Source: Betaproteobacteria bacterium
Lineage (GTDB): Bacteria > Pseudomonadota > Gammaproteobacteria > Burkholderiales > JACQAP01
Reading direction: 5' to 3'
DNA: 64,000 nucleotides
Assembly: GCA_016194905.1 (NCBI GenBank)
Contig: JACQAP010000005.1
Span: 205,114-269,113, forward strand
Shown here: positions 1 through 56,574 of the stretch, piece after piece
Layout: each line of letters opens with the position of its first letter
Position numbering within the stretch: the first letter of the stretch is position 1
Translations under genes and position numbers: made by a program
Notes under the pieces: generated by a model
Database searches by the model: none
Told to the model about the DNA's origin: nothing
Seen by the model: only the letters and a program-made list of their open reading frames with translations

Positions 1-1983
1 TGGATTCTCGGCCGACCCGCCGGCAATGCGCGCATGCAGGAAATCGCCGCTGCCATACAACAAGGTGCGCAGGCCTATCTGAACCGGCAGTACACGACCA
101 TCGCCATTGTTGGCGTCATCCTGTTCGTGGTGCTCGGGTTCGGGCTCGACTGGTACTCCGCGATCGGTTTCCTGATCGGCGCCGTGCTGTCGGGGTTGAC
201 GGGCTTCATCGGCATGAATGTCTCCGTGCGCGCCAACGTGCGCACCGCCGAAGCCGCCAACAACGGCATCAATGCCGCTCTCCAGGTCGCATTCCGCGGC
301 GGCGCGATCACCGGCATGCTGGTGGTTGGGCTCGGCCTGCTCGGCGTGGCTGGCTATTACGGCATTCTGCTGACCATGATCGAGCCCGACAAGGCGCTGC
401 ACTCACTGGTCGGGCTGGCCTTCGGTTCTTCATTGATCTCGATTTTCGCGCGCCTCGGCGGCGGCATCTTCACCAAGGGCGCCGACGTCGGTGCCGACCT
501 GGTGGGCAAGGTGGAAGCTGGCATTCCCGAAGACGATCCGCGCAATCCGGCGGTGATAGCCGACAACGTCGGTGACAATGTCGGTGACTGCGCCGGCATG
601 GCGGCCGACCTGTTCGAGACCTACGCCGTCACTATTGTCGCCACGATGCTGCTCGGCGGCCTGATGCTCAGCCAGGTGGGTCCCAACGCCGTGCTCTATC
701 CGCTGGTCTTGGGCGGCGCTTCGATCATCGCTTCCATCATCGGCACGTTCTTCGTCAAGGCGAAAGAGGGCGGCAAGATCATGAACGCACTCTACAAGGG
801 CGTGATCGTGTCGGGCGTGCTCGCTGCCATCGCCTTTTACTTCATCACCAACAAGATGATGGCCGACAGCCCGCTGGGTGCGATGCATCTGTTTTACGCA
901 TCGCTCGTCGGCCTGATCCTCACCGCGTTGATGGTGGTCATCACCGAGTACTACACCGCTACCGAATACGCGCCGGTACGTCACGTCGCCGCGGCTTCGC
1001 AGACCGGTCACGCAACCAACATCATCGCCGGCCTGGGCGTGTCCATGAAGTCCACCGCGCTGCCTGTGCTCGCCGTCTGCGCCGCGATCTGGGCTGCTTA
1101 CACATTCGCCGGACTGTACGGCATCGCCATTGCCGCCACCGCAATGCTGTCGATGACGGGCATGATCGTAGCACTCGATGCCTATGGCCCGATCACCGAC
1201 AACGCCGGCGGCATCGCCGAAATGGCTGGGCTGCCCGCGAAGATCCGCGACATCACCGACCCGCTGGACGCGGTGGGCAACACCACCAAGGCCGTGACCA
1301 AGGGCTATGCAATCGGCTCCGCCGGCCTCGCTGCATTGGTGCTGTTCGCCGATTACACACACAACCTGGCAGCCCTGCATAAGCTCGGTCCCGACACGCT
1401 GGTCAAGGGCTTCGAACTCTCCGACCCGGCGATCATCATCGGCCTGTTCATCGGCGGACTGGTGCCCTACCTGTTCGGCGCCATGGCGATGGAAGCCGTC
1501 GGACGTGCCGCTGGTGCAGTGGTGAACGAAGTGCGCCGCCAGTTCCGCGAGATCAAGGGCATCATGGAAGGCACCGCGAAGCCGGATTATTCACGCGCAG
1601 TGGACATGCTGACCAAGGCCGCCATCAAGGAAATGCTGATTCCGTCGCTGCTGCCGGTGCTGGTTCCGGTGATAGTCGCCTTCGGCATGAACTGGCTGAT
1701 GGGTCCGGGCGCCGGCATTCGCGCGCTCGGCGGCCTGCTGATCGGCACCATCGTCACCGGCCTGTTCGTCGCCATCTCGATGACGACCGGCGGCGGTGCC
1801 TGGGACAACGCCAAGAAATACATCGAAGACGGTCACTACGGCGGCAAGGGTTCCGATGCTCACAAGGCAGCGGTGACAGGCGATACCGTGGGCGACCCTT
1901 ACAAGGACACGGCCGGCCCAGCCGTGAATCCGTTGATCAAGATCATCAACATCGTGGCGCTGCTGCTGGTTCCATTGCTGTAG
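1..1983 (+). CDS. hppA: Membrane-bound H+-translocating pyrophosphatase, 5' end outside window
   Basis: Reading frame is open from base 1 (listed ORF 34..1983). Multi-TM protein with hallmark motifs [33 protein letters not shown] and [14 protein letters not shown]. Confidence 0.95.
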
Positions 1984-2042: not shown

Positions 2043-2099
2043 AAGGTGCATCAGACTTTCCCGTAGGTAGAGACAGGCCGGTGGGTGGCAAGACTCAAA

Positions 2100-2282
2100 A
2101 ACCACTCACCGCAAAGGACGCAAAGGACGCAAAGGACGCAAAGGTAAAGTCAAAGGCGAAGAAGGATACAAAAGCAATTTCCGTGAGCCAAAACCAACAG
2201 GCATGGTATTTTCCCGTCGAGGGTTGTCTCTCCCTGGTTTTCCTTCGCGTCCTTGGCGTCCTTTGCGGTGAATGTTTTTCCT
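2100..2282. repeat. Palindromic MITE-like element, copy 1 (arm unit gcaaaggac)
   Basis: Left arm tcaccgcaaaggacgcaaaggacgcaaaggacgc pairs with right arm gcgtccttggcgtcctttgcggtgaatg. The centre matches copies 2 and 3 in reverse orientation. Confidence 0.8.
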
Positions 2283-2356
2283 TCGTGACGTTGACCCTAT
2301 CCCGCAAGTCAGTGAAAATTAACCTCCGACCCACACGAAAATTGGATGAACATTTT

Positions 2357-2752
2357 TTAACGGCCAACGGGAATTACGCAGCGTCCGTTGATACATGCGG
2401 CCACCGGTTCCGGTAGTGCAACGCATGCGGCGACGGGAACTCCCCGCTTCTGCGCATCCTCGAGCGCAAAGTTGTATTCGGCGATCTTGGTTTCGAGCGC
2501 GGCCTTGTCGGTCGACCGCCAGGAATACGCGATGTATTCGGCCGGGCCGCCGCAGGCATTCGCGCCCAGTGCGGCGATCCGGCAGTTCACCAGATTCGCG
2601 CAAACTGCCGACCCCAACAGCACCGTGATGTCATTGCGCAGCCGCGCGAGTTCCACTTCCGCGCCGACGGCGGCCTTTTCATCTGCGCACACACCGCCGT
2701 TCAGGCCGGCCACCAGGACAATGCCAACCAGCAACCGAACCATCGGATTCAT
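2357..2752 (-). CDS. Small secreted Cys-rich hypothetical protein
   Basis: 131-aa ORF with an N-terminal hydrophobic signal-like segment (MNPMVRLLVGIVLVAGLNGGVCA) and GGGGAGG upstream of the ATG. No family recognised. Confidence 0.55.
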   Translation of the reverse strand: MNPMVRLLVGIVLVAGLNGGVCADEKAAVGAEVELARLRNDITVLLGSAVCANLVNCRIAALGANACGGPAEYIAYSWRSTDKAALETKIAEYNFALEDAQKRGVPVAACVALPEPVAACINGRCVIPVGR

Positions 2753-2889
2753 GCCAACCTCCCCGACTCGTCGGCTGCCACTATTTCACGTGAATGGCAG
2801 ACAGCGCAAGCTGCCGGCGGATTCGACTCGGACGCCGCTTTCTGAGAAAGTACCGGCCCTCGAAGCTTTTCGCAGTCCTCAACAAACCC

Positions 2890-3447
2890 ATGGCCCTCAA
2901 GGCAACCATTTTCAAAGCCGAGCTGCGCATAGCGGACATGGAGCGCGGCTACTACCACGATCACGCGCTCACCGTCGCGCGCCATCCGTCGGAGACCGAT
3001 GAACGCATGATGGTGCGGCTGCTGGTGTTCGCGTTGAACGCCGATGAGACCTTGGCATTCGGCGCCGGACTGAGCACCGACGACGAACCCGACCTGTGGC
3101 GCAAGGATCTGACCGGCAGCATCGAAACCTGGATCGACGTCGGTCTGCCCGACGAGAAACGCATCCGCAAGGCCTGCGGCCGCGCCGACGAGGTGTTCGT
3201 CTACAGCTACGGCGGCCATGCCGCGGAACTCTGGTGGCAACAGGTCGGCGACAAGCTCGCGCGGTCGAACAAGCTCACGGTCATCAATCTTCCGCAGACA
3301 GGTACGCAGGCCCTGGCCGGCCTGGCGGCGCGCAACATGCAATTGCAAGTCACCATCCAGGACGGACAGGTATGGGTGGCGGACGATCACGACTCGGTAC
3401 AACTGGACCCGAAAACGATTCTGGCGGCAAAACCCGAGTGGAGCTGA
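2890..3447 (+). CDS. yaeQ: YaeQ family protein
   Basis: N-terminus MALKATIFKAELRIADMERGYYHDHALTVARHPSETDERMM is typical of YaeQ. Start placed at the internal ATG of ORF 2794..3447. Confidence 0.85.
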   Translation: MALKATIFKAELRIADMERGYYHDHALTVARHPSETDERMMVRLLVFALNADETLAFGAGLSTDDEPDLWRKDLTGSIETWIDVGLPDEKRIRKACGRADEVFVYSYGGHAAELWWQQVGDKLARSNKLTVINLPQTGTQALAGLAARNMQLQVTIQDGQVWVADDHDSVQLDPKTILAAKPEWS

Positions 3448-3554
3448 GGTCGGCGTTGCCGCCAGCGCGGGATTATTCGAACGAATGCTGGTGAGGAGCC
3501 ACACCAAGTGGCATCGTAGTTTGCAAAAGTCCCGAATTGGGACTAACATGACTC

Positions 3555-3857
3555 ATGCGCGTCATTGCATTATCGACCCTCAAGGCATTCTGGGAGAACT
3601 CTTCAAAATATGACGACGCGGAACAGCCGACGTTGGTCTGGTACCGACACGTCCTTAAGGCCGATTGGGCATCGCCAGCAGACGTGAAGTCCCAGTTTGG
3701 TAGCGCCACTATCCTTGCGGATGGGCGTGTCGTGTTCAACATCGCCGGGAACAAGTATCGGGTGGTGGTGTGGATCAACTACGCGTACCGCGTCATTTAT
3801 GTCCGCTTCATTGGAACGCACGCGCAGTACGATCGGATCGACGCACAGACGATTTGA
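3555..3857 (+). CDS. higB: Type II toxin HigB (RelE-fold mRNA interferase)
   Basis: 100 aa with FNIAGNKYRVVVWINY and VRFIGTHAQYDRID, characteristic of the HigB_toxin family. The antitoxin gene follows after 13 nt. Confidence 0.85.
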   Translation: MRVIALSTLKAFWENSSKYDDAEQPTLVWYRHVLKADWASPADVKSQFGSATILADGRVVFNIAGNKYRVVVWINYAYRVIYVRFIGTHAQYDRIDAQTI

Positions 3858-3870
3858 AGGAACGTAGAGT

Positions 3871-4245
3871 ATGGAAATCAAGCCGATCAGGACCAAAGCA
3901 GACTATAAGGCCGCTCTCAAGGAGATCGAGTCGCTGATGGGCGCTCGCCGCAATTCCCCGGAAGGCGAGCGCTTGGATGTGTTGGTTACCCTTGTGGAGG
4001 CACACGAGCGCAAACACTTTCCGCTTGAGCTACCGGATCCGATCGAGGCCATCAAGTTCGCGATGGATCAACAGGGCCTGAGCGTGAAGGATCTCGATCC
4101 GATGCTGGGCCGCTCGAACCGGGTCTATGAAGTCCTGAACCGCAAACGACCGCTGACGCTCAAGATGATCTGGCGACTGCACAAGGAGCTCGGCATCCCC
4201 GCCGAGTGTCTGATCAGACCGCCGCAGCAGAGCGAGGCTGCCTGA
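3871..4245 (+). CDS. higA: Type II antitoxin HigA (HTH domain)
   Basis: 124 aa. Starts MEIKPIRTKADYKAALKEIESLM and carries a C-terminal HTH-like segment (NRKRPLTLKMIWRLHKELGIP). Adjacent to higB. Confidence 0.85.
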   Translation: MEIKPIRTKADYKAALKEIESLMGARRNSPEGERLDVLVTLVEAHERKHFPLELPDPIEAIKFAMDQQGLSVKDLDPMLGRSNRVYEVLNRKRPLTLKMIWRLHKELGIPAECLIRPPQQSEAA

Positions 4246-4288
4246 ATCACCGCGCTGGCAAATCGTATTGATCCAGAAGTTCTTCAGG

Positions 4289-4408
4289 GCACCATCCAGG
4301 ACGGACAGGTATGAGTGGCGGACGATCGCGCGTCGGTGCAACTGGATCCGAAAACCATTCTGGCATCGAAGCCCGAGCGGAGCTGAGGTCGGGGCTGCCG
4401 CCAGCGCG
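4289..4408 (+). pseudogene. Displaced yaeQ 3'-end fragment, copy 2
   Basis: Hand alignment to 3351..3470 (caccatccaggacggacaggtatg.gtggcggacgatc...gagctgaggtcgg.g.tgccgccagcgcgg). Includes the stop codon plus ~20 nt. Diverged. Confidence 0.8.
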
Positions 4409-4500
4409 GCAGATCACCATAGTTAAAGCCCTGATCCCCAACGTGTTCGCCTTCCCGCGGTTGTCGTGCATCGCTGCCGGGAGCGTAATACAATGGCCGG

Positions 4501-4755
4501 ATGAAAACTCTTACTGTGCGACTTCCCGAGGCGTTGGTGGCCGAGATTGAGGCGGAGTCTCGTGAACGCCGGCGCTCCAAGTCCGACGTGATTCGCGAAC
4601 GCCTGACCCGTGCAGAGAAACCGCGGACAAAAGCGCGATTGCCTGACTCGATTGCCGACTTGGTCGGTTCAGTGCCCTCGTTGTCTGCGGACTTGAGCCA
4701 GCGGAAGAAGGCGTATTTGAAGAGCACGGATTATGGCCGGAAACGTAATCGTTGA
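4501..4755 (+). CDS. Ribbon-helix-helix (CopG-like) antitoxin
   Basis: 84 aa starting MKTLTVRLPEALVAEIEAESRERRRSKSDVIRERL, an RHH pattern. Overlaps the downstream PIN gene. Confidence 0.75.
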   Translation: MKTLTVRLPEALVAEIEAESRERRRSKSDVIRERLTRAEKPRTKARLPDSIADLVGSVPSLSADLSQRKKAYLKSTDYGRKRNR

Positions 4756-5143
4756 TGCCGGCTTCCTCATCGCTTTACTGAGCCGCCGCGATACCCACAA
4801 CGCTTGGGCAGTGGCTGAATCGCCTAATTTTCCCTTGCCGTGGCTAACTTGCGACGCCGTTCTTTCGGAAGCCTTTCACCTGCTCGGAGCGCGCGGTTGG
4901 AGCGCTTTGGCCGCGCTTCTCCGGCGAGGCGCGGTAATCCCGACATTTGATCTTGGTGGTGAACTCGACAGAGTCCTGACTTTGATGCAAAAGTACTCGA
5001 GCGTTCCCATGAGCATCGCGGACGCTTGCCTGGTCAGGATGACGGAAACACTGTCCAATCCAATCATTCTCAGTACCGATAGGGACTTCCACGTGTATCG
5101 TCGCCACAGCCGGCACGTTGTGCCTTGCAGAACTCCCTATTGA
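4733..5143 (+). CDS. vapC: PIN-domain toxin (VapC-like)
   Basis: 136 aa with an N-terminal VIVDAGFLIAL acidic motif and a C-terminal ILSTDRDF motif typical of PIN nucleases. Overlaps the RHH gene by 23 nt. Confidence 0.8.
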   Translation: MAGNVIVDAGFLIALLSRRDTHNAWAVAESPNFPLPWLTCDAVLSEAFHLLGARGWSALAALLRRGAVIPTFDLGGELDRVLTLMQKYSSVPMSIADACLVRMTETLSNPIILSTDRDFHVYRRHSRHVVPCRTPY

Positions 5144-5205
5144 TGGTGGCGCATGACGGCAACCTCGCGGAGCATCGAGAGAGAGGGCATGGATAGCAAT
5201 GAGCG

Positions 5206-5446
5206 ACGGCGGCCACGCTGCGTGGGTCTGGTGGCAACAGGTCGGCGACAAGCTCGCGCGGTCGCACAAGCTCATGGTCATCGATCCTCCGCAGGCGGGC
5301 ACTGGCCGGCCTCGCCGCTCGCAACATGCAATTGCAAGTCACCGTCCAGGACGGACAGGTGTGGGTGGCGGACGACCGCGACTCGGTGCCACTGGATCCG
5401 CAAACTATTCTGGCGGCAAAACCCGAGTGGAGCTGAGATCGGCGTT
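5206..5446 (+). pseudogene. Displaced yaeQ 3'-end fragment, copy 3
   Basis: Hand alignment to about 3209..3458 of yaeQ (tggtggcaacaggtcggcgacaagctcgcgcggtc ... caattgcaagtcacc.tccaggacggacaggt). Contains a 9-nt deletion and many substitutions. Confidence 0.8.
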
Positions 5447-5618
5447 ACAGCGGCGTGTAGGATTCCGGCGTAATTTGATGGCCGAGATATGGCGGCGTAC
5501 TATCGTGGAGATTAAAAAAAGGAACTAACCCGGTTCCGGAGTGGGTGTGTGTTTCTATGCTCCCGTGTTACTTGAACGGGGGCTTCCTTTCTGAACTGAC
5601 ACGTGAGGTCCGATCAAA

Positions 5619-6335
5619 ATGCCAATATTGAGACGCCAAGGTTGGAGCCGGCTAGCCGTCGTCTTGACGTTGGCATGGATCGTCGGAGTAGTTGCATATA
5701 CGGCCGTTGTTTATCAACTGCGGTACTCTGAGTTGTCGGCACTGGGAAGCGGTATCAGCCCGAGCACCCGCCAGGCAGTAGGCCACGAAGGGTTTTTGGT
5801 GAAGTGCACTGAGGCTGAATCACAGGGCTTGTCGTGCGGACTTCGCTACAAAAACCTTCTGTGGCTTATCCTCGCGCCCCTTGGCGGCGCGTGGATTCTT
5901 GTGCCGGCGACGGTCATTGCCGTGAGATGGATCCAAGAAGGATTTCGCCCAGGCGACAAAGCAATTCACCCCGACGCCACACCACTAGAGCTTGGCGAGT
6001 TCATTACTCAAAGCCTCTTCGCGATTTTTCACGGCCTTGATCAGGCGAACCAGCGTGTTATCGCTGAAGGACAGACGCCCGAGTCTCTATTCTTTCTGAG
6101 ATACAGTCCAGACAAGAGCACGGGATCGGCCATAGAGTTCGATGTCGGAGTCATAGCTATGGCCGACACAACGAGTTATGCCAAAGCAGCGTTTAAGGTC
6201 GCAGTGTTTGAGGGAGCCCTCGGGCAAGCGTCTGCAACAAGCAGAGGGGCAGTGTCACGCATGAAATTTATCGTCTACGCCAAGCACTGGGACGGCTTGA
6301 ATGGCCCGCGGTCCGCCGAAAGAAAAAATGTATAG
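5619..6335 (+). CDS. Hypothetical membrane-anchored protein
   Basis: 238-aa ORF in a visibly lower-GC segment with two hydrophobic helices in the N-terminal half and a soluble C-terminal half. No firm family. Confidence 0.5.
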   Translation: MPILRRQGWSRLAVVLTLAWIVGVVAYTAVVYQLRYSELSALGSGISPSTRQAVGHEGFLVKCTEAESQGLSCGLRYKNLLWLILAPLGGAWILVPATVIAVRWIQEGFRPGDKAIHPDATPLELGEFITQSLFAIFHGLDQANQRVIAEGQTPESLFFLRYSPDKSTGSAIEFDVGVIAMADTTSYAKAAFKVAVFEGALGQASATSRGAVSRMKFIVYAKHWDGLNGPRSAERKNV

Positions 6336-6386
6336 CTTTACCCGTTGTTAACGAGCATCCGCCCCGCAGTCGGCGCAGGAAGAAAC

Positions 6387-6812
6387 ATGATGCACTCTCC
6401 AATCAGGGCACGTTCATTCGTCGCAACTCTTGGCATCCTGGTGGTATGGCTCAACATAGCCGCTGGCTGTGGAGGGCATTATGAGGTGCGAGAGAAAATC
6501 GATAGGACGCGCTACAAAACGGTGTACGTCGAGAAATTTGAAAATGATGAGTTTGACATGAGGCCGCGCCTCGAACAGCAAATGGTGGTTCTCGGTTTCG
6601 AGACGACTGGGGAAAAAGCGAAGGCAGATCTGACGCTCGTGTGGCGCTACACTCATGCCATGTTGGGCACCAATGCGTCAGTTCGTTTGGTGAACGCGGA
6701 AGGCAGGACGGTCTACCTTGGCGAAGGGGACAACCCGGGATTCGGCACTGCATTGAACAAGACGGGCGCAGTCTGGGGGTGCTTCGAGAGAGCCCTTGGC
6801 GGGTTAAGGTAG
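6387..6812 (+). CDS. Hypothetical lipoprotein
   Basis: Signal peptide with lipobox-like LNIAAGC, and AGGAAG before the ATG at 6387 (internal start of ORF 6345..6812). Confidence 0.5.
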   Translation: MMHSPIRARSFVATLGILVVWLNIAAGCGGHYEVREKIDRTRYKTVYVEKFENDEFDMRPRLEQQMVVLGFETTGEKAKADLTLVWRYTHAMLGTNASVRLVNAEGRTVYLGEGDNPGFGTALNKTGAVWGCFERALGGLR

Positions 6813-6921
6813 CAGCACGCATAGAACTCGGGTATCCCCCAGGGGGGGCTAGGGACAGGTGCTTACCTGCTAAAGCGACCGTACTCCGAAAATTGTGATC
6901 AAAAGATATTCGTGAAGTCAG

Positions 6922-7779
6922 TCAGTCTGAATTGGTGTCGGTGTTTTTTGCTTGCGCTCGTCGATCTTCCCATGCGTTCTTGATTACTGCGGCAATCCAT
7001 CCGAGTTCCCTTCCGATCATAGACCCGGCCACGACAAAGGCGATAAAGACGATGAAAGCCATGACGTAGTTGAAGGCGAAGAGAATCCCGCTGCCCAAAA
7101 TCCACAGCAAGATTGCGTAAACGAAGAAAGCGGCGTAACGCGGGAAGACGGTACCGGCTACGATGAAAGCGACTATGGGGGCAAGAGGAAGAATCCAAGG
7201 TCCCCACCCGGTCCCGACGATTCCGCCCACCCAGTTATCAATCCAAGTAAATATGCTTGCCCCGATGGCTTCAACCCATTTATCCAAAGGTCGCAAGAGG
7301 TTGGAAAATGCAGGCGCGTACACGATAAATAATATGACGCCCCCGATAATGCCGAAAGGATTTCCACTCTCCCTCGCCATCCAGCGGTCGATGCGAGTTT
7401 GTCTTAAGCGCTCACTTTCTCGGAGTTTGAATTCCGCCCATTCACTGGGATTCAGCTTGGTCTGGGTTCCGTCCCAGTTGGTAACAGTGGGGTCACGCCA
7501 ATTTGCGGGCGCCCAGCGTTTGAATGCTTGCAAACCGAGCAACACGAATATGAAGATGTACCCCATGGTGTCGAGCGCTCGTCCCCAAGTACCCCAGCGC
7601 CAGCTATCCGTTAACTCGAATAGATAGTCCAGCGGCAAAAACAAGAGGAACAGAACTGCTGCTACCAGCGCACCGCCCACGACCATGTAGACAGGGACGA
7701 GCAATGCCAGCCCTAGCCATTTGAACAGGCCAAGAAGTTGCGCCGGGAACCCGCGAATCCTTTGCAGGCGAGTATTCAT
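6922..7779 (-). CDS. Hypothetical polytopic membrane protein
   Basis: Start placed at MNTRLQRIRG, with GGAG 9 nt upstream, inside ORF 6922..7923. Many hydrophobic helices. Lower-GC segment. Confidence 0.55.
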   Translation of the reverse strand: MNTRLQRIRGFPAQLLGLFKWLGLALLVPVYMVVGGALVAAVLFLLFLPLDYLFELTDSWRWGTWGRALDTMGYIFIFVLLGLQAFKRWAPANWRDPTVTNWDGTQTKLNPSEWAEFKLRESERLRQTRIDRWMARESGNPFGIIGGVILFIVYAPAFSNLLRPLDKWVEAIGASIFTWIDNWVGGIVGTGWGPWILPLAPIVAFIVAGTVFPRYAAFFVYAILLWILGSGILFAFNYVMAFIVFIAFVVAGSMIGRELGWIAAVIKNAWEDRRAQAKNTDTNSD

Positions 7780-8030
7780 CGCGATTTTCTCCAAGGTCTC
7801 CGGTTCACTAAACACTCGCTGCTCGTGATGGTAAAGCGCGTTCAAGCTACTCGCTGGCGGCTGTGTGGTCAATGCCAGTGACTTCCCAGGTTGCGGAGTA
7901 GTTGCGTTGCCGGTAGCGTGCAAGAGCCAAGCAAATAGGGGTTTTAGCTTCCACCAGTTTCAGTGGAGTTGTATCAGCGCCGTTCAAGACACTGAAACAA
8001 CCTCAATCCAGTGCCCAGATTCATCCTGTC

Positions 8031-8062
8031 TGGCACTCTTGAGGGGATTCGAACGCCTCCCT
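8031..8062 (-). other. tRNA 3'-end-like fragment (T-arm, acceptor strand, CCA)
   Basis: Minus strand reads aggcGTTCGAATcccct-caagagt-g-cca: T-loop consensus, a 5-bp stem with one mismatch, a 7-nt acceptor strand, a discriminator and CCA. No D or anticodon arm found upstream. Confidence 0.35.
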
Positions 8063-8159
8063 CTCTCTTCGCGCCGCAACAGAACATGCTATGAAAAGCG
8101 TCATGCTGCATCCGATATTCCTGTGGATAGGGGAGGCATCTGCGGCTTAAGACTCAACA

Positions 8160-8337
8160 AGTATTCACCGCAAAGGACGCCAAGGACGCGAAGGAATACC
8201 GGGAGAAAATAGACCACGACGGGAGAGTACATAGCCTGCCAGCTCGGGCTCACGAGAACTGTCGTTTGTACCCTTCCTTGCTTTTGACCTGGACATTCCT
8301 TCGCGTCCTTGGCGTCCCTTGCGGTGAATGTTTTTCT
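8160..8337. repeat. Palindromic MITE-like element, copy 2
   Basis: Arms ttcaccgcaaaggacgccaaggacgcgaagg and ccttcgcgtccttggcgtcccttgcggtgaatg. The centre is similar to copy 3. Confidence 0.85.
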
Positions 8338-8428
8338 TTAGTGGACACCACCCGCCAGGGCGACTGTTAGACGCCTGCGATGTTCCGCGCCATAATGGCC
8401 GCTCCGCTTCGATCCAGGCCAACCGATC

Positions 8429-9253
8429 ATGAGCGCAACTTCCCTGACTTCCCTCGATACGCTCGCAGCGTCAATTCCCGACGGCGCAGTGCTTGCCGTG
8501 CCAAAGGATACTTCCGGCGTGGCGATGGCCGCGACACGGGCGCTGGCGCGCCGCGGCGTGCGCAATCTGCATCTGGTCTGCGTGCCGCAAAGCGGCTTGC
8601 AGGCGGATCTGCTGATCGGCGCCGGCGCGGTGACGACATTGGAAACTTCGGCGGTCACCATGGGAGAGTTCGGCGCCGCACCGTGCTTCACCGCGGCGTT
8701 GCGCAACCGCTCGCTGCGTATCATGGATGCGACCTGCCCCGCGATTTACGCCGCACTGCAGGCCGCCGAGAAAGGTATTCCCTTCATCCCGCTGCGCGGC
8801 ATCATCGGCACCGACGTGTTGCGCCATCGCACGGACTGGAAAGTCATCGACAATCCGTTCGCCGCCGGCGATTCGATCGTCGTGCTTCCGGCAATCCGGC
8901 CCGATGTCGCGCTGTTCCATGCACGCTGCGCCGATCGCGAGGGCAACGTCTTCATCGGCAGGGAACGCGAGGTGCTGCTGATGGCGCATGCCGCGAAGAC
9001 CACGCTGGTCACGGTCGAGGAAATCGTCGACGGCAACCTGCTCGACGACCCGGCGCGCGGCGGCGCCGTGCTGCCTTCCATCTACGTATCGGCCGTCGCC
9101 GTCGCGAAACGCGGCGCCTGGCCGCTGGCTTTTGCCGATCTGTATCCGATGGACGATGCGGCGATCGATCATTACATGACGCTGGCACGCAGCGCGGAAG
9201 GCGTCGCGCGGTTCCTCGCCGAGTGGGACAGCGGCGTGCAAGCCGCGGCATGA
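8429..9253 (+). CDS. CoA-transferase family, subunit A-like
   Basis: 274 aa resembling glutaconate/3-oxoacid CoA-transferase alpha subunits. Translationally coupled to the B-like subunit. Confidence 0.8.
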   Translation: MSATSLTSLDTLAASIPDGAVLAVPKDTSGVAMAATRALARRGVRNLHLVCVPQSGLQADLLIGAGAVTTLETSAVTMGEFGAAPCFTAALRNRSLRIMDATCPAIYAALQAAEKGIPFIPLRGIIGTDVLRHRTDWKVIDNPFAAGDSIVVLPAIRPDVALFHARCADREGNVFIGREREVLLMAHAAKTTLVTVEEIVDGNLLDDPARGGAVLPSIYVSAVAVAKRGAWPLAFADLYPMDDAAIDHYMTLARSAEGVARFLAEWDSGVQAAA

Positions 9254-9978
9254 GCGAATTCAGCCGGACCGAGCTGCTGATCGCCGTCATCGCACGCCTG
9301 TTGCAGGGTTGCGCCCATGTGGCGGTCGGCGCTTCTTCGCCGGTAACCGGCGCGGGCGCACTGCTTGCGCGTTCGCAATCCGCCGGCGCGATGCGCGTCA
9401 CCGTGCTCGGTTCGCTGAAAAACAATTTCTTCACCAGCGGCGGCGTCGAACTCTTCGATCTTGCCGCGCAGGGCAGGATCGACGCGTTCTTCCTCGGCGG
9501 CGGGCAGATCGACGGCCAGGCCAACATCAATCTGGTCGGCACCGGCGACTATCCGGATACAACGGTGCGCTGGCCGGGTTCCTTCGGGTCGGCGTATCTG
9601 TACTTCCTGGTGCCGCGGGTCATCCTGTTCCGCGAAGAGCACACGCGCAGGGTCATGGTGCCGAAGGTGGATTTCATCAGCGCGCCGGGCGTGAGCGACG
9701 CCGGCGTGCATCGGCCCGGCGGCCCTCACGCGCTGCTCACCGGACTGGGATTGTTTTCCTTCGACCGCGCGCGCCGCCGCTTCCGGCTGGAGAGCGTGCA
9801 CCCCGGGCACAGCATCGAGGAAATCCGCGACAACACCGGCTTCGAATTCGACTGCCCGGCGCAAGTCCCGGCCACGCCGGCCCCGGATGCTTCCATTCTG
9901 GCGGCCATCCGCAACCGCATCCGCGGCGACATAGCGGAAACCTATCCGCACTTCGCAGCTGCCCTCTCGGCCGCCTAG
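9250..9978 (+). CDS. CoA-transferase family, subunit B-like
   Basis: ATG at 9250 overlaps the stop of subunit A (ATGA). MSEFSRTELLIAVIARLL... and GGGQIDGQANINLVG are typical of beta subunits. It is the downstream part of ORF 8380..9978. Confidence 0.8.
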   Translation: MSEFSRTELLIAVIARLLQGCAHVAVGASSPVTGAGALLARSQSAGAMRVTVLGSLKNNFFTSGGVELFDLAAQGRIDAFFLGGGQIDGQANINLVGTGDYPDTTVRWPGSFGSAYLYFLVPRVILFREEHTRRVMVPKVDFISAPGVSDAGVHRPGGPHALLTGLGLFSFDRARRRFRLESVHPGHSIEEIRDNTGFEFDCPAQVPATPAPDASILAAIRNRIRGDIAETYPHFAAALSAA

Positions 9979-10081
9979 CTGTTTTTTTTGGATCGGCCGA
10001 CTTTCATGTGGATCGAAAGTATGTTTGCATTGGCTTCCGGGATAGGCGCAGCAACGCGATGAGTATCCTCATAAATCTAAA

Positions 10082-10248
10082 ACATTCACCGCAAGGGACG
10101 CCAAGGACGCCAAGGAAAACGAAGTAGAACAGGCCTCGACGGAAGTATGCAGTGCCCGCCGCTTCGGGTTCACGGGTGGCTCTTTGTACTTTCCATGTCT
10201 TTGACTTTCCCTTGCGTCCTTGGCGTCCTTTGCGGTGAGGTCTTTTTG
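10082..10248. repeat. Palindromic MITE-like element, copy 3
   Basis: Arms cattcaccgcaagggacgccaaggacgccaagg and ccttgcgtccttggcgtcctttgcggtgagg. Confidence 0.85.
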
Positions 10249-10304
10249 ACTCTCACGCCCAACTTGCCTGTCTTCAATCTCGGGAAAGTCAGACGCACCT
10301 CTTT

Positions 10305-11045
10305 TTAATGGGCGAGGACCGCCGCACCCAGCATGGTCAGCCCGGACACGAGCAGCAAGCCTTCGATCAGCAGACTGAACTGTTCGGCCTTCAGTTTGAG
10401 CACCAGCCGCTTTGCCACGAAAGAACCGACCATCAGCGAGCTGCCGATGATCAGGCCCTTGGAGAATATGTCCATGGGCAGCGCCCCGAAGCTGCGAAAC
10501 ACGATCGCCTTGCTCGTATAGACCGCCAGCGAGCCCAGCGCCTCGGTCGCGAGGTAAGCGCCCTTGACCAGGCCCAGCGCCAAAAAGAAAGGGGCGTTGA
10601 TCGGACCGGTCGACACCACAATGCCGGTGATGTAGCCGACCAGCGCCCCGGCCAGCGCCAGTTGCCAGAGATTGATGCGCAGATTGTGCCCGGCCAGCCA
10701 GCGCCGTGCCGGAATCACCGCCAGGAAGAACAGGCCCATGGCAATCTCGATCCAGCGCTGCGGGATGGCCAGCAGCGTGGACGCTCCCAACGCTGCCGCC
10801 GGAACACCGGTCGCGGAATAGGCGGCGAACGCGCGCCAGTCAACGTCCCGCCACCACACCAGCGCGCGCGACGCGTTCGCCAGCAGCGCCGCCACCGCCA
10901 TGATCGGCACCGCTTCGCGCGGACCGAACAGGATCACCAGTACCGGCATCAGCATGATCGACGAGCCGAAGCCGATGACCCCGCCGAGCGTGCCGGCCAC
11001 CACGCCCAGGAGCAGTACCGCCAGCAGATCCAGGTGCAGGAACAT
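10305..11045 (-). CDS. TauE/SafE (TSUP, DUF81) family anion exporter
   Basis: 246-aa polytopic membrane protein with the Gly-rich repeated helices typical of TSUP transporters. Divergent from a LysR gene. Confidence 0.8.
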   Translation of the reverse strand: MFLHLDLLAVLLLGVVAGTLGGVIGFGSSIMLMPVLVILFGPREAVPIMAVAALLANASRALVWWRDVDWRAFAAYSATGVPAAALGASTLLAIPQRWIEIAMGLFFLAVIPARRWLAGHNLRINLWQLALAGALVGYITGIVVSTGPINAPFFLALGLVKGAYLATEALGSLAVYTSKAIVFRSFGALPMDIFSKGLIIGSSLMVGSFVAKRLVLKLKAEQFSLLIEGLLLVSGLTMLGAAVLAH

Positions 11046-11192
11046 TGCGTCCTTTTCGTCCAGGCGAGCCGAATCCGTCGCTGGAGTAAAATGAAATCAT
11101 CTTAACGTTTGTGCAACGACTCGCAGGCGCAATCGAGCTTGCGCCGCGGCCCGATTCCAGGCGCAGCGTTCACCGACCGAACCAGGCGCGCC

Positions 11193-12116
11193 ATGGAACT
11201 GCGGCAACTCGAATACTTCATCGCCATCGCGGAAACCGGTGCGTTCTCGCGTGCGGCCGTTCGCCTCTCGGTCGGCCAGCCGATCCTGAGCCGGCAGATG
11301 AAGGCGCTGGAACAGGAACTGGGCACCGAGCTCTACCATCGCACTGGCCGCGGCATCGTGCTGAGCGAAGCCGGAAAAATTCTCGAACAACATGCGCGCG
11401 GCGTCCTCGAAACCACCGCCGGTGCGCGGCGTGCGATCAATGCGCTGGGTTCCGCACCGGCCGGCCGCGTGGTGATCGGCATGCCGCCTTCGGTCGGTGC
11501 GGTATTGACGGACTCGCTGGTGCGCCAGTTCCGCGCCGAATTTCCGAAAGTCTCGCTCGGCGTCATGGAAGGCTTCAGCGGCCATGTTCTGGAATGGCTG
11601 ACGACCGGGCGTATCGACGTCGCCGTGCTGTATAACGCACCGCGCACCAGCGCGCTGGTGACCGATCCGCTGCTGACCGACGAGTTGTTCCTGCTCGGCC
11701 CGGTCGGCGATCCGGCCGGGGCCGGCAACGGTGACGTCGCCGCGTCGCATCTCGCCAGGATTCCGCTGATTCTGCCGAGCCGGCCTCACGGTTTGCGCGT
11801 ACTGGTCGATGATTTCCTTTCGGGAATCGGTGTCGCACCCAACGTGCAGGTGGAGATCGACGCGATGCCGTCCACGCTCAGCCTGGTCGAGGGCGGCATC
11901 GGCTATACGATCCTGTCGTATTCCAGCGCACACCATTTGATCGAAGCGGGCCGCATCAGGAAGTGGTCGATCGTCGACCCGACGATGACGCGATCGCTGG
12001 TGGTCGCGACCTCGACGCAACGGCCGGTGACCAAGGCCGCCAGGGCCCTGGTCGGTTTCGTGCGCAAACAGGTCGACACGCTGGTCGAAGAAGGACGCTG
12101 GGCGCCGAGAAGTTAG
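11193..12116 (+). CDS. LysR family transcriptional regulator
   Basis: N-terminal HTH MELRQLEYFIAIAETGAFSRAAVRLSVGQPILSRQMKALEQELG. Start placed at the internal ATG of ORF 11109..12116. Confidence 0.9.
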   Translation: MELRQLEYFIAIAETGAFSRAAVRLSVGQPILSRQMKALEQELGTELYHRTGRGIVLSEAGKILEQHARGVLETTAGARRAINALGSAPAGRVVIGMPPSVGAVLTDSLVRQFRAEFPKVSLGVMEGFSGHVLEWLTTGRIDVAVLYNAPRTSALVTDPLLTDELFLLGPVGDPAGAGNGDVAASHLARIPLILPSRPHGLRVLVDDFLSGIGVAPNVQVEIDAMPSTLSLVEGGIGYTILSYSSAHHLIEAGRIRKWSIVDPTMTRSLVVATSTQRPVTKAARALVGFVRKQVDTLVEEGRWAPRS

Positions 12117-12123
12117 TTCGGGC

Positions 12124-12306
12124 TGAACCACGGAGGGCACGGAGAACACGGAGAGAAAAATATCGGGATTTTTATTGGGCACCAATCGATGTATCGACGA
12201 CAATATTTTTATTCGCGCCCCGATGGGTTCGTCCCGTCTGTTCATTTGTTCTTTATCTGCCTCGCTGTTGCTTTTCCTCCGTGTCCTCCGTGGTGAATGG
12301 TTTTGA
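12124..12306. repeat. Palindromic MITE-like element, copy 4 (arm unit cacggagg)
   Basis: Left arm accacggagggcacggagaacacggagag pairs with right arm cctccgtgtcctccgtggtgaatgg. Same architecture as the other copies with a different arm sequence. Confidence 0.75.
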
Positions 12307-12309
12307 CTT

Positions 12310-13107
12310 TCATCCGATAGGATCGGCGTCGAGCCGCACGATCCAGTCTTCCATGCCGGCACGCGCGGCAGGATAACGGTCCATCACCAGCGGGTCGTGC
12401 CCGGGAATGATGTGCCGGGGCGATGTCGCCAGCCGGCGCAGGGTGTTGAATCCTTCGAGCATGTCGTTGAGATTGTAGAGAATCGGGAAAGCGCGATCCT
12501 GCTCCATGTGCGCATAGAAATGGCTGGCGTCGGAAGCCAGCACAACCCATCCCCTGCGCGTGCGCACGCGCACCGACTGCATGCCTTTGGTGTGCCCGCC
12601 GATATGATGTACCTCGATGCCCGGTGCGATCTCGGCCGGTCCATCGTGGAACTGGACGCGCTGGTCGAACACGCACCGCACCATATGCACCACGTCGTCG
12701 GCCTCGTAGCCGTGGCGCATCATGCCGTGGCACATGCAGCGGCCGGTGGCGAAATCCATCTCCTTGTCCTGCAGATGGTAGCGGGCGTTGGCAAACAGCG
12801 GAATATTGCCGGCGTGGTCGTAGTGCATGTGGGTGATGATCACGTCCTTGACCTTCTCCGGCTCGATGCCCAGCGCCTTGACGCCTTCCGCGACCGGCCG
12901 GACGATCTGGCGGTTGCGCTTCTTCGCCATGGTCTCGTTGAAGCCGGTGTCCACCACGATGCTGCGCTCTCTGTTCGAGACTACCCAGACGTAGTAGTTC
13001 AGCGGCATCTCCGTGTCGTGCGCATCACCGCCGATGAAGTTATCCGGCGAACGGCGCATCAGCCGGGCGTATTTGATCGCGTAGATTTCGTAAGATTCTT
13101 CCGTCAT
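12310..13107 (-). CDS. MBL-fold metallo-hydrolase (lactonase-like)
   Basis: HxHxDH motif ITHMHYDHAGN. Start placed at MTEESYEIYAIKY inside ORF 12310..13176. Confidence 0.8.
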   Translation of the reverse strand: MTEESYEIYAIKYARLMRRSPDNFIGGDAHDTEMPLNYYVWVVSNRERSIVVDTGFNETMAKKRNRQIVRPVAEGVKALGIEPEKVKDVIITHMHYDHAGNIPLFANARYHLQDKEMDFATGRCMCHGMMRHGYEADDVVHMVRCVFDQRVQFHDGPAEIAPGIEVHHIGGHTKGMQSVRVRTRRGWVVLASDASHFYAHMEQDRAFPILYNLNDMLEGFNTLRRLATSPRHIIPGHDPLVMDRYPAARAGMEDWIVRLDADPIG

Positions 13108-13144
13108 CGTCCTGCTCTCCCGCGTCTGTTGCGTCGATGGCAGT

Positions 13145-13534
13145 TTACTTCTTCTCGTTGCGATCGAATTCGGCAAAGGTTTCCTTCGCCACGCGGAAGG
13201 CGTCCACTCCCGCCGGGATGCCGCAGTAGATCGCGACCTGCAGCAGCACTTCGCGGATTTCGGCCCTGGTCACGCCATTGCGTAATGCGCCGCCGATGTG
13301 CATCTTCAGTTCGTGCGGCCGATTCAGCGCGGAGAGCATCGCCAGGTTCAGCATGCTGCGGGTTTTCTTCGGCAGTTCCTCCCGGCCCCATACCGCGCCC
13401 CAGCAGTATTCCGTAGTGAGCCTCTGCATCGGCATGTTGAAGTCGTCGGCGGCGGCAATGGATTTTTCCACGAACTCGGCGCCGAGCACGGACTTGCGGA
13501 TTTCGAGACCCTTCTTGAACAAATCGTCATTCAT
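13145..13534 (-). CDS. Carboxymuconolactone decarboxylase family protein (PcaC-like)
   Basis: 129 aa with TRSMLNLAMLSALNRPHELKMHIGGALRNGVTRAEIREVLLQVAIYCGIPAG, typical of the CMD family. Confidence 0.85.
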   Translation of the reverse strand: MNDDLFKKGLEIRKSVLGAEFVEKSIAAADDFNMPMQRLTTEYCWGAVWGREELPKKTRSMLNLAMLSALNRPHELKMHIGGALRNGVTRAEIREVLLQVAIYCGIPAGVDAFRVAKETFAEFDRNEKK

Positions 13535-13616
13535 TTCTAATCTCCTGAATTAAAGAACTACAGCCAAAACAAATCTCAACGCAGATACCCTACGTGCGTA
13601 GCACGTCGGAGTACCC

Positions 13617-13768
13617 TTTTAGGCGCAGAGAACGCGGAGGACGCAGAGGAAAGGAAAAAGAACAACGAGAATTGCATGCGGTTCATACCGATACTCCACG
13701 ATACCCGTATTTCATCGCTTTCTCCGCGTTCTCTCTCTTCCCTCTGCGCCCTCTGCGTCAACGCTCTT
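13617..13768. repeat. Palindromic MITE-like element, copy 5 (arm unit cgcagagg)
   Basis: Left arm aggcgcagagaacgcggaggacgcagagg pairs with right arm ccctctgcgccctctgcgtcaacgc. Confidence 0.7.
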
Positions 13769-20845: not shown

Positions 20846-21040
20846 GCCGCCCCCCGCTGATTTTATGCATGCCATGTTAACGGGACGCGCCGCGTTCAGC
20901 ATCCCCGCTGCAGACATAACTGACTGATCATTCCGCGCATAACACGGGCGCTGCGGCGCAGCATCGCAGAAACCGGTGCGGGGCAATGCTTATCACGGGA
21001 AACGGGGGAAACGGATGCCGGGCAGGCCGGCGGGCGCACG

Positions 21041-21631: not shown

Positions 21632-22070
21632 CCTTGCCGTTTCCCGCAGCACCGCTCCTGACATCGAAGACGCCGCCCTTGTCCGTATCGCGCGGTGGCA
21701 CCACCAGCCAGGTCGTCGTGCTGCCGGTGACCGGATCAATGGGCGCCGAACGCAGGTAGTGCCGCGTGACCAGATCCTCGATCTTGTCCGGATACTTGCC
21801 GGTATCGGAAAAATACTGGTCCAGCGACTGCCGGACCTGGAACAGGTTTTCCCTGAGCACGGTTTCCTTCGAGCGGTCGAGGCTGCCGAAGTAGCGCGGC
21901 ACCGCAATGCTCAGGAGAAACGCGAGGATGGCGAGAACGACGAGCAATTCCACGAGCGTGAACGCTCGTGAGGGGCGAGTAAAAGCCCCAGAGCGTTTGA
22001 CGTTGCCTAGCCCCTCACCCCTAGCCCCTAGCCCCTGCCTTTCCTCACCATTCCCTATACGCAATCCCAT
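21606..22070 (-). CDS. Pseudopilin (prepilin-type N-terminal methylation domain)
   Basis: FTLVELLVVLAILAFLL prepilin helix. The only in-frame start gives a 36-aa leader partly encoded by a ggggcta heptamer repeat. Confidence 0.65.
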   Translation of the reverse strand: MGLRIGNGEERQGLGARGEGLGNVKRSGAFTRPSRAFTLVELLVVLAILAFLLSIAVPRYFGSLDRSKETVLRENLFQVRQSLDQYFSDTGKYPDKIEDLVTRHYLRSAPIDPVTGSTTTWLVVPPRDTDKGGVFDVRSGAAGNGKDGTAYRDW

Positions 22071-56104: not shown

Positions 56105-56523
56105 TGATAGATTTGGAGAAGCAGGTACGTGATAGAGACGTGCGAAAGGCGCATCGACCCTCGTCTTAACTGACTCAATTGAAATGATTGTTGCGGAGCG
56201 TCGTCACACCTTTGGACGACGCGCCGTCCGTTCGGTTGGAGCCGAATGTCATAAGCTTATTCAAAAAAATTTCCTGGAAGCTCGGAATCGAGCGCCGTAT
56301 TACTCGCGCCGTGTAGGACGGAAACGGACAGCGCGTCGGGAGAATGTGATGCGCAACGAACGCAGACTTGGCGGAAACTCTCCCGGAACCGGGAGGCGGG
56401 TAAACCGCCGACGGTGATCAGCTAACAGTGAACGGTGAACAGGGAACAGGGAACAGCTAAGAGTGAACGGCGAATGCGATAAAGGACCAGCACGAATCCG
56501 GCTTCGTACTTCGGAAGATTCAG

Positions 56524-56556
56524 AAAAACAAACGGCGGCCCGTCGGCCGCCGTTTT
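56524..56556 (-). terminator. Rho-independent terminator after fbaB
   Basis: The minus strand reads aaaacggcggcc-gacg-ggccgccgtttgttttt, about 20 nt after the fbaB stop. Confidence 0.6.
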
Positions 56557-56574
56557 CATTTGCCTCTTTTTCTC

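Follow-up and report, generated by a model that had tools for sequence, protein, structure and literature searches.

We examined a 64,000-nucleotide (nt) stretch of DNA from a Betaproteobacteria bacterium (GenBank assembly GCA_016194905.1, contig JACQAP010000005.1, positions 205,114 to 269,113 of the forward strand; hereafter, the window) with respect to five intergenic palindromic elements, namely E1 to E5, and compared it with ∼320 fetched loci and contigs, which are designated below by L-numbers. In our estimation, there is an even chance that these five loci are copies of a modular, nonautonomous intergenic palindromic repeat, which belongs to a non-DDE superfamily resembling the repetitive extragenic palindromes (REPs) and REPINs and is able to act as a bidirectional hairpin terminator. 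The arm module from which the elements are built is present in many phyla and in phage contigs, and no description of it was found in the literature or in Rfam. Intergenic palindromic repeats in general are already well known; we know of no precedent for tandem 9-mer arms with caps in combination with exchangeable cargo and a sequence that is conserved across phyla.

All five elements of the original prediction are present in the window where it had placed them, and all fold as long hairpins. The minimum free energies of the predicted RNA folds are −87 (E1), −101 (E2), −82 (E3), −69 (E4), and −60 (E5) kcal/mol, with z-scores against dinucleotide shuffles of −6.1, −9.4, −6.0, −2.4, and −3.1, respectively. 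The proposed composition of the arms, as tandem 9-mers, was borne out by Tandem Repeats Finder, which gave 9-nt arrays flanking every element on both sides, including CGCAAAGGA ×3.9 at 2110-2144 in E1, CACGGAGAA ×2.9 at 12129-12154 in E4, and CGCAGAGGA ×3 at 13624-13650 in E5, each with a complementary array opposite. As had been claimed, each right arm complements its own left arm, with inverted arms of 18-56 nt that are 79-97% complementary across E1 to E5. A regular expression for at least two tandem units matched only E1 to E5 in the whole 64 kb, with no further match outside the cluster; a rough calculation gave p ∼1e-3 under uniform placement for five elements within one ∼12-kb stretch of 64 kb.

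Covariation between the arms, on which the original prediction had hinged, was found in a set of 59 distinct copies with the caps as anchors, where double changes occurred in 9 of the 23 stem pairs. The double-change cells numbered 131, compared with 56 ± 11 in shuffles, and the observed value was reached in none of 500 shuffles. Moreover, 92.5% of cells were paired in these copies, as opposed to 36-55% with the partner slid. The first unit position illustrates the exchange, with G:C in 29 copies, A:U in 26, G:U in three, and another combination in one. Overall, the arms are ∼89% complementary, A/G transitions make up 72% of the mismatches, and element-specific variants are common to both arms of the same element (family alignment; L133).

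The arms follow one plan, comprising an A-run, ∼3 nt, a (T)TCACC cap, and then two to four tandem 9-mers of the form N-C-N-R-A-G-G-R-C, with the opposite arm being the reverse complement and closing with GGTGAA, ∼3 nt, and a T-run. The purine arm lies 5′ of the pyrimidine arm in 88 cases versus six that are reversed, so that the 5′ arm is rich in purines regardless of the strand that is read. The GGTGAA end has a frequency of 0.7-0.99 per position, with T at ∼0.5 at +9 to +12 beyond it, and on the other side, T occupies −1 in 76% and A occupies −10 to −5 in ∼50%. Across phyla, C2, A5, G6, G7, and C9 of the unit are fixed and the cap is conserved. The middle, by contrast, is exchangeable, with loops of 13 to ∼260 nt that are unrelated between lineages and outer modules that are sometimes attached, and the arm module, not the center, is therefore the unit of homology. 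Within the window, alignments and BLAST of the centers supported the earlier observation that E1, E2, and E3 have homologous centers (here termed type A), inverted in E1. The centers of E4 and E5 are unrelated to these, which speaks against a single family when the centers are aligned, but the arm module is common to hundreds of elements with unrelated centers. Many metagenome loci with the E1-E3 arm contain a type-A center, others contain at least five further center types, and the arm types of E4 and E5 recur in L256, L264, and many other loci despite their unique centers; the 13 type-A copies that were aligned have a mean column identity of 72%. Our analysis supports a family of nonautonomous repeats with arm subfamilies and with no transposase found at the loci covered.

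A scan of representative genomes with a degenerate pattern (TCACC plus two units), for which ∼17 chance matches were estimated under uniform base composition, identified at least 120 loci. Among the matches listed, the carriers include Acidobacteriota, Planctomycetota, Bacteroidota, Clostridia, Chloroflexota, Alpha-, Beta-, and Gammaproteobacteria, Geobacterales, and others. Features that the search pattern lacks were nevertheless seen in the matches, namely the T before TCACC, the A-run, and a third unit (in ∼60%), and about half of the matches have a complementary array ending in GGTGAA, with a T-run ∼3 nt later. The arm pattern was also found at 73 loci in viral contigs, and the exact E1-E3 arm was found at 113 loci in metagenomes. 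Isolates carry the module as well, including Gemmatirosa kalamazoonensis, at 28 and at least 38 places on its megaplasmids, Bacteroides finegoldii, and Bacteroides ovatus, and Gemmatimonadota are also among the phyla with the module; a BLAST search of E2 against plasmids gave no match. Solo arrays are common, as ∼55% of the detected arms have no partner within 400 nt. Certain phage contigs contain four to seven solo TTCACC/9-mer purine arrays in a single orientation (7/7 in L183, 5/5 in L148, and 4/4 in each of L132, L145, and L193), several of which stop a few nucleotides short of an ATG, their last unit occupying a position like that of a ribosome-binding site. In five of seven such contigs, the strand richest in coding-like open reading frames (ORFs) is the one that carries the purine array. 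This pattern suggests an orientation-dependent role for the array alone. The phage solo arrays (in L183, L132, L145, L148, L193, and also L045) often adjoin GGCAACGG repeats. In Rfam 15, the elements had no match at the gathering threshold (window and ten loci), and at E ≤ 5 on 2-14 kb of the window, only subthreshold microRNA-hairpin matches appeared. A full-text literature search with 17-mers from the arms gave one irrelevant match, 12-mers gave primer coincidences only, and a concept-based search returned only papers on REP/RAYT and on triplex/BoxC elements, which describe other elements.

Comparisons with relatives revealed changes within the arms, between the arms, and at whole sites. The E1 arm consists of four homogenized units, whereas that of its ortholog L221 has three mixed units, with GCCAAGGAC in the middle, and both units of the E5 right arm read CTCTGC here versus CTTTGC in relatives (CCCTTTGCG ×2 at the same place). 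In L234 and L244, the flank that bounds E2 on the left (the outer module EndA, described below) is joined to a reversed center, which is 85.6% identical when flipped versus 74% when compared directly, and EndA lies left of the center in E2, L255, and L263, and right of it in E1, E3, and L223. The occurrence of the type-A center in both orientations, against asymmetric outer ends, is the outcome that recombination or template switching between the inverted arms produces. Copies are gained or lost between relatives that are 84-93% identical. The syntenic contig L001, from a metagenome-assembled genome (MAG) and ∼91% identical to the window, has 52 nt instead of window positions 2043-2369 (E1), 9 nt instead of 9980-10310 (E3), and only a one-unit remnant, GAACCACGGAGG/ATGGTTTTGAC, at the E4 site; these three elements are likewise absent or remnant in L003, and in L249, the two stop codons at the E4 site are only 7 nt apart. 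The 37-nt gap between the MBL-fold and CMD-family genes (13108-13144, MBL start to CMD stop), which is empty in the window, holds a TCACC/9-mer element with a 75-nt center in L249 (1173-1333) and another TCACC/9-mer element in L208. The same spot in L303 (5453-5610) is occupied by a different GGGGAGAGGG palindrome (BoxC/triplex-motif-like), bounded by ATCACC...GGGGTGAGG. This intergenic spot is filled independently by different hairpin repeats.

Elements nest inside elements in L256 and L264, and smaller palindromes invade the arms of E5 and the left arm of the E2 ortholog L299 (L299:1226-1254, …ATACCCCCTTGAGGGGT…), with similar mini-palindromes adjoining arms in L004, L007, and L068; it seems that smaller palindromic repeats target the 9-mer arms. 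The relatives, which differ across the whole intergenic stretch, yielded no clean insertion junction, and a search by exact protein match for strain-level empty sites turned up no contigs other than identical ones that end inside arms. The 100%-identical short-read contigs L005, L010, L204, and L205 all end in this way, which is the pattern expected with arms that are multicopy in the source genome and which has the practical consequence that the elements break short-read assemblies. A further practical consequence, also foreseen originally, is the generation of spurious low-complexity ORFs, exemplified by the ORF at 2081-2416, which contains TAKDAKDAKDAKVK (AKDAKDAK-like), and by a 52-aa gene called in the MAG contig L001. 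At the junction of the LysR and MBL-fold genes (window 12059-12136), L001 has the LysR 3′ end in duplicate (11239-11316 and 11932-11980), flanking a cupin gene that is lacking in the window, and in L303, this convergent junction contains ∼800 nt of unrelated coding sequence on the reverse strand. The site is a hotspot for insertions of both gene and hairpin size, and the elements mark intergenic spots of rapid structural turnover.

In the window, E1 follows the H+-PPase gene (34-1983, plus strand) and its terminator (2004-2041); on its other side is a convergent minus-strand gene, which ends at 2357. The genes on either side of E2 are divergent, namely a minus-strand gene (6922-7923) and CoA-transferase A (8429-9253). 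E3 fills most of the convergent gap between CoA-transferase B, which ends at 9978, and TauE, which is on the minus strand and ends at 10305. E4 is also in a convergent gap; 8 nt separate its start from the LysR stop codon (12116), and 13 nt separate the end of its GGTGA from the MBL-fold stop codon (12310-12312). E5 lies between a periplasmic-binding-protein gene (minus strand, ending at 13785) and the CMD-family gene (minus strand, starting at 13534). Four of the elements had been assigned to successive gaps; strictly taken, this was not upheld, as both the TauE/LysR gap (11045-11193) and the MBL/CMD gap are without an element. E1, E3, E4, and E5 follow gene ends, which E2 does not, and over the whole family, the cap lies a median of 39 nt from a stop codon (crude gene calls). 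The LysR/MBL gap contains no hairpin other than E4, which is probably the only terminator-like structure between these genes. The suggestion that the elements act as terminators or 3′-end stabilizers is plausible for E1, E3, and E4, although the family-wide placement statistics (given below) lend it no support. Because placement mirrors intergenic availability, and because E2 is located between divergent starts, termination looks opportunistic and not the reason for which the family exists. Concerning the genes themselves, the 532-aa ORF listed at 8380-9978 is not one gene; this region encodes CoA-transferase subunits A (8429-9253) and B (9250-9978), as in L001 and L204, and the first half of the 532-aa ORF is an overlapping artifact.

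On the interpretation that we favor, the elements would spread not by DDE-type cut-and-paste or copy-and-paste, but by a hairpin or single-strand route or by recombination (REP/REPIN-like or gene-conversion-like), and this spread would involve a trans-acting factor. Each copy would inherit a matched pair of arms, and the palindrome would then evolve in concert, its tandem units being homogenized and expanded by slippage and its arms recombining or templating each other, with flipping of the center as the outcome; later, one-sided transitions would let the arms decay to ∼89% complementarity. Transcription from either direction would give a very stable hairpin with a U-run after it, a putative bidirectional terminator or 3′-end protector, which would fit E4 and E3, both between convergent genes, and E1. 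Several observations weigh against this scheme. No mobilizing enzyme or mechanism was identified in the fetched loci or the window. The near-identical unit consensus across phyla exceeds what a hairpin needs and points to sequence-specific recognition, and the phage contigs with solo purine arrays in one orientation are not predicted by a hairpin-centered model. No compensatory change was seen among orthologs, and the origin of new matched arm haplotypes is not accounted for. As regards termination, gene 3′ ends and convergent gaps are not enriched, in that 57% of elements are in tandem, 24% in convergent, and 19% in divergent gaps, compared with 60/20/20 for all gene pairs of the same loci (crude gene calls); E2 sits between divergent genes; and the T-run, ∼3 nt past the GGTGAA cap at the stem end, is suboptimal for intrinsic termination. 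Our simple promoter/terminator consensus scan cannot score hairpin loops of >8 nt.

The excess of conservation over pairing needs raises two related alternatives. One, which we regard as possible but rather unlikely, is that the TTCACC-capped 9-mer array is the recognition module of an undescribed system, either (i) a new class of hairpin or single-strand mobile element, moved by an enzyme that reads 9-bp units, or (ii) a cross-phylum cis-element read by conserved machinery; the latter form may be reflected in the AGGA/GGAGG core of each unit and in phage copies that are sense-oriented just upstream of start codons. In both cases, the palindromes of the window would represent a single instance of a code, regulatory or mobile, that bacteria have in common with their phages. 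The other, which is possible but doubtful, holds that the array and not the hairpin is conserved, with TTCACC plus (NCNRAGGRC)n being an iteron-like binding array and the palindromes being two such arrays face to face. The reader of these arrays may be a widespread sequence-specific DNA- or RNA-binding factor, or the purine arm may itself be a multi-AGGA, Shine-Dalgarno-like or CsrA-like RNA site. The unit positions and cap that are fixed across phyla, the abundance of solo arrays, and the phage arrays that share one orientation, end in several cases just before an ATG, and follow the main coding-like strand all agree with this idea; it is the conservation beyond the pairing need and the one-way phage arrays that keep it alive. 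However, we found no candidate factor and no conserved neighbor gene, the element-specific variants that both arms of one element share would be needless for independent binding arrays, the AGGA motifs are base-paired in the hairpin copies, and orientation relative to genes is ∼50:50 in the bacterial loci (a crude estimate). We consider it improbable that the elements are instead a structured RNA, whether a cis-regulatory hairpin, a processed small RNA (sRNA), or a dedicated terminator, maintained by purifying selection with the covariation as compensatory evolution. While the folds are very stable, the arms covary family wide, U-runs flank the elements on both strands, and E3 and E4 fit tightly between convergent stop codons, such hairpin selection, as entertained in the original prediction, received no positive support. 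Mismatches within elements showed no strand bias of G:U over A:C, splitting like a fair coin (among elements with three mismatches, 3:0 in three and 2:1 in ten). None of the 39 predicted pairs in the 13 type-A copies had a double change, neither the type-A center nor EndA showed supported structure or covariation, and the orthologous sets E1/L221 and E2/L260/L299/L234 changed on one side only. Furthermore, the center occurs in both orientations, presence differs between close relatives, no Rfam match was obtained even at E ≤ 5, and gene 3′ ends are not enriched.

Mobility by other known routes was weighed in the same manner. Classical MITEs (miniature transposable elements with inverted repeats), as deletion derivatives of insertion sequences (ISs) that a DDE transposase mobilizes in trans by binding the 9-mer subterminal repeats, would explain the terminal inverted repeats, the small size, the many copies, and the insertion polymorphism, and subterminal tandem repeats are transposase-binding sites in some eukaryotic DNA transposons (CACTA, hAT, and Foldback). 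In this strict sense, the MITE-like label of the original prediction failed in our tests, as no target-site duplication was found in 85 copies (2-8 bp, offsets of 0-20 nt; counts at chance level), and the differences between filled and empty sites go beyond what a clean insertion would leave. Arm pairs at IS-like spacing were absent, except for one phage-specific 752/882-nt pattern, and no gene-enclosing element with matching ends was found among the fetched loci. Neither a transposase nor a shared neighbor gene recurred among the neighbors in 120 genome loci, where the recurrent families were ABC ATPases, SDRs, alcohol dehydrogenases (ADH), and histidine kinases. No transposase is present at 1-16 kb of the window, the search for a parent IS having covered the fetched loci and this part of the window. 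In addition, phmmer searches with IS200 TnpA and Escherichia coli RayT queries, against the ORFs of ∼320 loci and the window, returned one RAYT-like ORF (in L119), which has GTAG REPs of its own, not TCACC arms, on its two sides. A survey of Y1 transposases describes no repeat with TTCACC/9-mer ends (PMC6006769). The lack of target duplication, IS-like spacing, and a linked enzyme thus makes a DDE-type MITE very unlikely. As a candidate cognate enzyme, we considered and rejected the TIRYT/subclass 2.1 Y1 transposases, which have a DnaA-like 9-bp-binding domain and for which the reported ends are GGGG[AT][CG]A[CG], not TTCACC. Least probable of all, to the point of being remote, is that the elements are an integrase-less cluster of integron attC sites (CALIN) or promoter switches that invert (invertons). 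Sequence-variable, self-complementary sites clustered at gene boundaries resemble the former, and a center in both orientations relative to its flanks, between loci and metagenomes, resembles the latter. Yet the RYYYAAC/GTTRRRY core sites of attC are absent, the ends being TTCACC...GGTGAA with the variants GAACC and GGTTM; the flanking genes are of mixed orientation, housekeeping type, and syntenic in relatives (L001) without elements; no integrase, invertase, or recombinase is nearby; no promoter-like site was found in the centers by the consensus scan; and any segment flanked by long inverted repeats would be expected to undergo inversion like that of the center.

Among known systems, REP/BIME/REPIN elements (mobilized by the Y1 enzyme RAYT) are alike in being multicopy imperfect palindromes that lie outside genes and lack a target-site duplication, in forming mosaic clusters with other motifs, in turning over fast, in having subfamilies with matched arms, and in their proposed roles in termination and mRNA 3′ protection. 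They differ in that the foot of the hairpin is (T)TCACC/GGTGA(A) here, not GTAG or CGTC, and that the arms here are 25-40 nt of tandem 9-mers around cargo of up to ∼260 nt. Further, REPs are lineage specific, each tied to its own RAYT (PMC6006769, PMC3733652), whereas the arm module here is the same across phyla. Bacterial MITEs (Correia/NEMIS, RUP, ERIC, Nezha, and others) resemble our elements in their size (60-260 nt), terminal inverted repeats, intergenic location, hairpin RNA if transcribed, possible terminator function, and tendency to mislead gene callers, but the present elements have no target-site duplication, no parent IS, arms made of tandem subrepeats, and a cross-phylum spread. 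Eukaryotic Foldback and CACTA elements have long inverted arms of short tandem subrepeats behind a short conserved cap, with variable middles; the likeness is architectural only, since they are eukaryotic, mobilized by a transposase, and make target-site duplications. Bidirectional intrinsic terminators, including the inverted pairs of DNA-uptake sequences in Neisseria and Haemophilus, have the same A-run/stem/loop/stem/T-run symmetry, reuse a short conserved sequence as the stem, and lie between convergent genes (as do E3 and E4). In contrast, our stems greatly exceed the necessary length, the T-run begins with an offset of ∼3 nt, divergent gaps are occupied too (E2), and the arm module is not genome-saturating as uptake sequences are. 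Integron attC/CALIN sites likewise keep their structure while their sequence varies and cluster at gene boundaries, but the R″/R′ core sites and cassette organization are missing here (genes are not co-oriented), and the neighbors are conserved without elements. Small palindromic repeats such as REPs and MITEs are as a rule confined to a lineage, each kind depending on an enzyme of its own; if the cross-phylum pattern seen here holds, it would imply an unrecognized and very broad mechanism that makes, moves, or uses these hairpins.

Relative to the extents first proposed, E1 (true span, 2045-2282) and E3 (true span, 10079-10305) are each longer by ∼60 nt, owing to the extra outer module EndA, E2 has a related outer module from ∼8109, and the left end of E5 lies 40 nt further left. 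The window has exactly two occurrences of the EndA motif GGTGCRTCWGACTTTCCCG, at 2045 (plus strand) and 10299 (minus strand), with 0.06 expected; EndA also flanks copies in other metagenomes, and homologous flanks are found in L265, L255, and L316. In E1, EndA (2045-2105, plus) comes directly after the T-run of the H+-PPase terminator, with the motif GGTGCATCAGACTTTCCCG at 2045-2063 and again at 10281-10299 (minus). It is followed by an arm (2106-2146, plus) with a TCACC cap at 2106-2110 and four 9-mers (GCAAAGGAC ×3 and GCAAAGGTA), i.e., one unit more than its partner and homogenized, then by the type-A center (2147-2239, minus), inverted relative to E2 and E3, and by the complementary arm (2240-2279, plus; arm proper at 2240-2266, GGTGA at 2267-2271, and T-run at 2275-2279). 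E2 opens with an EndA-like module (8109-8164, plus) that ends in ...GGGGAGGCATCTGCGGCTTAAGACTCAACAAGTAT, the homology with L234, L244, L255, and L276 beginning at 8107-8109. Its arm (8165-8196, plus) has TCACC at 8165-8169 and then GCAAAGGAC GCCAAGGAC GCGAAGGAA, with 35-nt arms that are 97% complementary, and its type-A center (8197-8295, plus), with orthologs in L260, L299, and the start of L303, precedes a complementary arm (8296-8335, plus; arm proper at 8296-8322, GGTGA at 8323-8327, and T-run at 8331-8335). E3 comprises an A-run and arm (10079-10117, plus; TCACC cap at 10086-10090, then GCAAGGGAC GCCAAGGAC GCCAAGGAA), a type-A center (10118-10206, plus) recognized by alignment and BLAST of the centers, a complementary arm (10207-10238, plus; GGTGA at 10234-10238), and EndA (10239-10305, minus), which extends to the TauE stop codon.

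The E4 arm (12125-12156, plus), of a type also seen in L256 and L264, has the cap variant GAACC at 12125-12129, followed by ACGGAGGGC ACGGAGAAC ACGGAGAGA; its center (12157-12273, no strand assigned) is unique, without a homolog in the fetched loci, and its complementary arm (12274-12304, plus) contains the arm proper at 12274-12291, GGTGA at 12292-12296, and a T-run at 12301-12304. In E5, the true left cap (13576-13584, plus) reads TCAAC (13576-13580)-GCAG, compared with TCACC-GC in the relatives L004 and L008, and is separated from the rest of the arm by a nested, REP-like 38-nt palindromic insert, ATACCCTACGTGCGTAGCACGTCGGAGTACCCTTTTAG (13585-13622, no strand assigned), which is a dispersed repeat with 93-97% identical copies in L287 (two), L305 (two), L220, and L014. 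The arm then continues as GCAGAGAAC GCGGAGGAC GCAGAGGAA (13625-13651, plus), followed by a center that is again unique among the fetched loci (13652-13738, no strand assigned) and a complementary arm (13739-13764, plus) of CCCTCTGCG ×2 with the noncanonical end TCAACGC. The ggtgaat-like terminus noted earlier does not hold for E5, which lacks GGTGAA and has GCG-TCAAC at its right end. Elsewhere, "inside-out" junctions, in which a pyrimidine arm with GGTGA is followed after 10-25 nt by TTCACC and a purine arm, occur in L119 (4090-4160), L034, L051, L104, L125, and L031; with their caps facing, they resemble abutted ends or the product of an inversion between two elements. In L320, from Bacteroides finegoldii, an unrelated long palindrome (GGGTCCAGGGTGAGGGGTGGTGAGGGTAGATTTATAAC ... 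complement; 6100-6330) adjoins a 9-mer hairpin within the same 558-nt intergenic region.

The window also contains a 4.9-kb island of lower GC content (3465-8353), which is absent from L001. The last 157 nt of yaeQ (3306-3462) are repeated at 4245-4401 (68%) and 5295-5451 (89%), and between these yaeQ-end copies are toxin-antitoxin cassettes, namely a HigB (3555-3857)/HTH (3871-4245) gene pair and an RHH (4501-4755)/PIN (4733-5143) gene pair. The island looks like the result of serial site-specific insertions behind yaeQ. E2 lies at its right edge, 16 nt from where homology with L001 resumes. Other repeats in the window include GGTGAAC-AGGGAAC-AGGGAAC heptamers (56411-56474), which are noncoding and upstream of a terminator-like hairpin (56531-56560), and short purine- or pyrimidine-rich noncoding tandem arrays at 22006-22036, 20997-21014, and 33183-33203, among which are CCCTAGC ×4 adjoining CCCTCACCCC, GGGAAACGG ×2 directly before an ATG, and GGGAAACAGC ×2. 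The only Rfam match at the gathering threshold in the window is Bcj11, a Burkholderia sRNA, at 34189-34310 on the minus strand (57 bits, E = 5e-7), which fits a betaproteobacterial origin.

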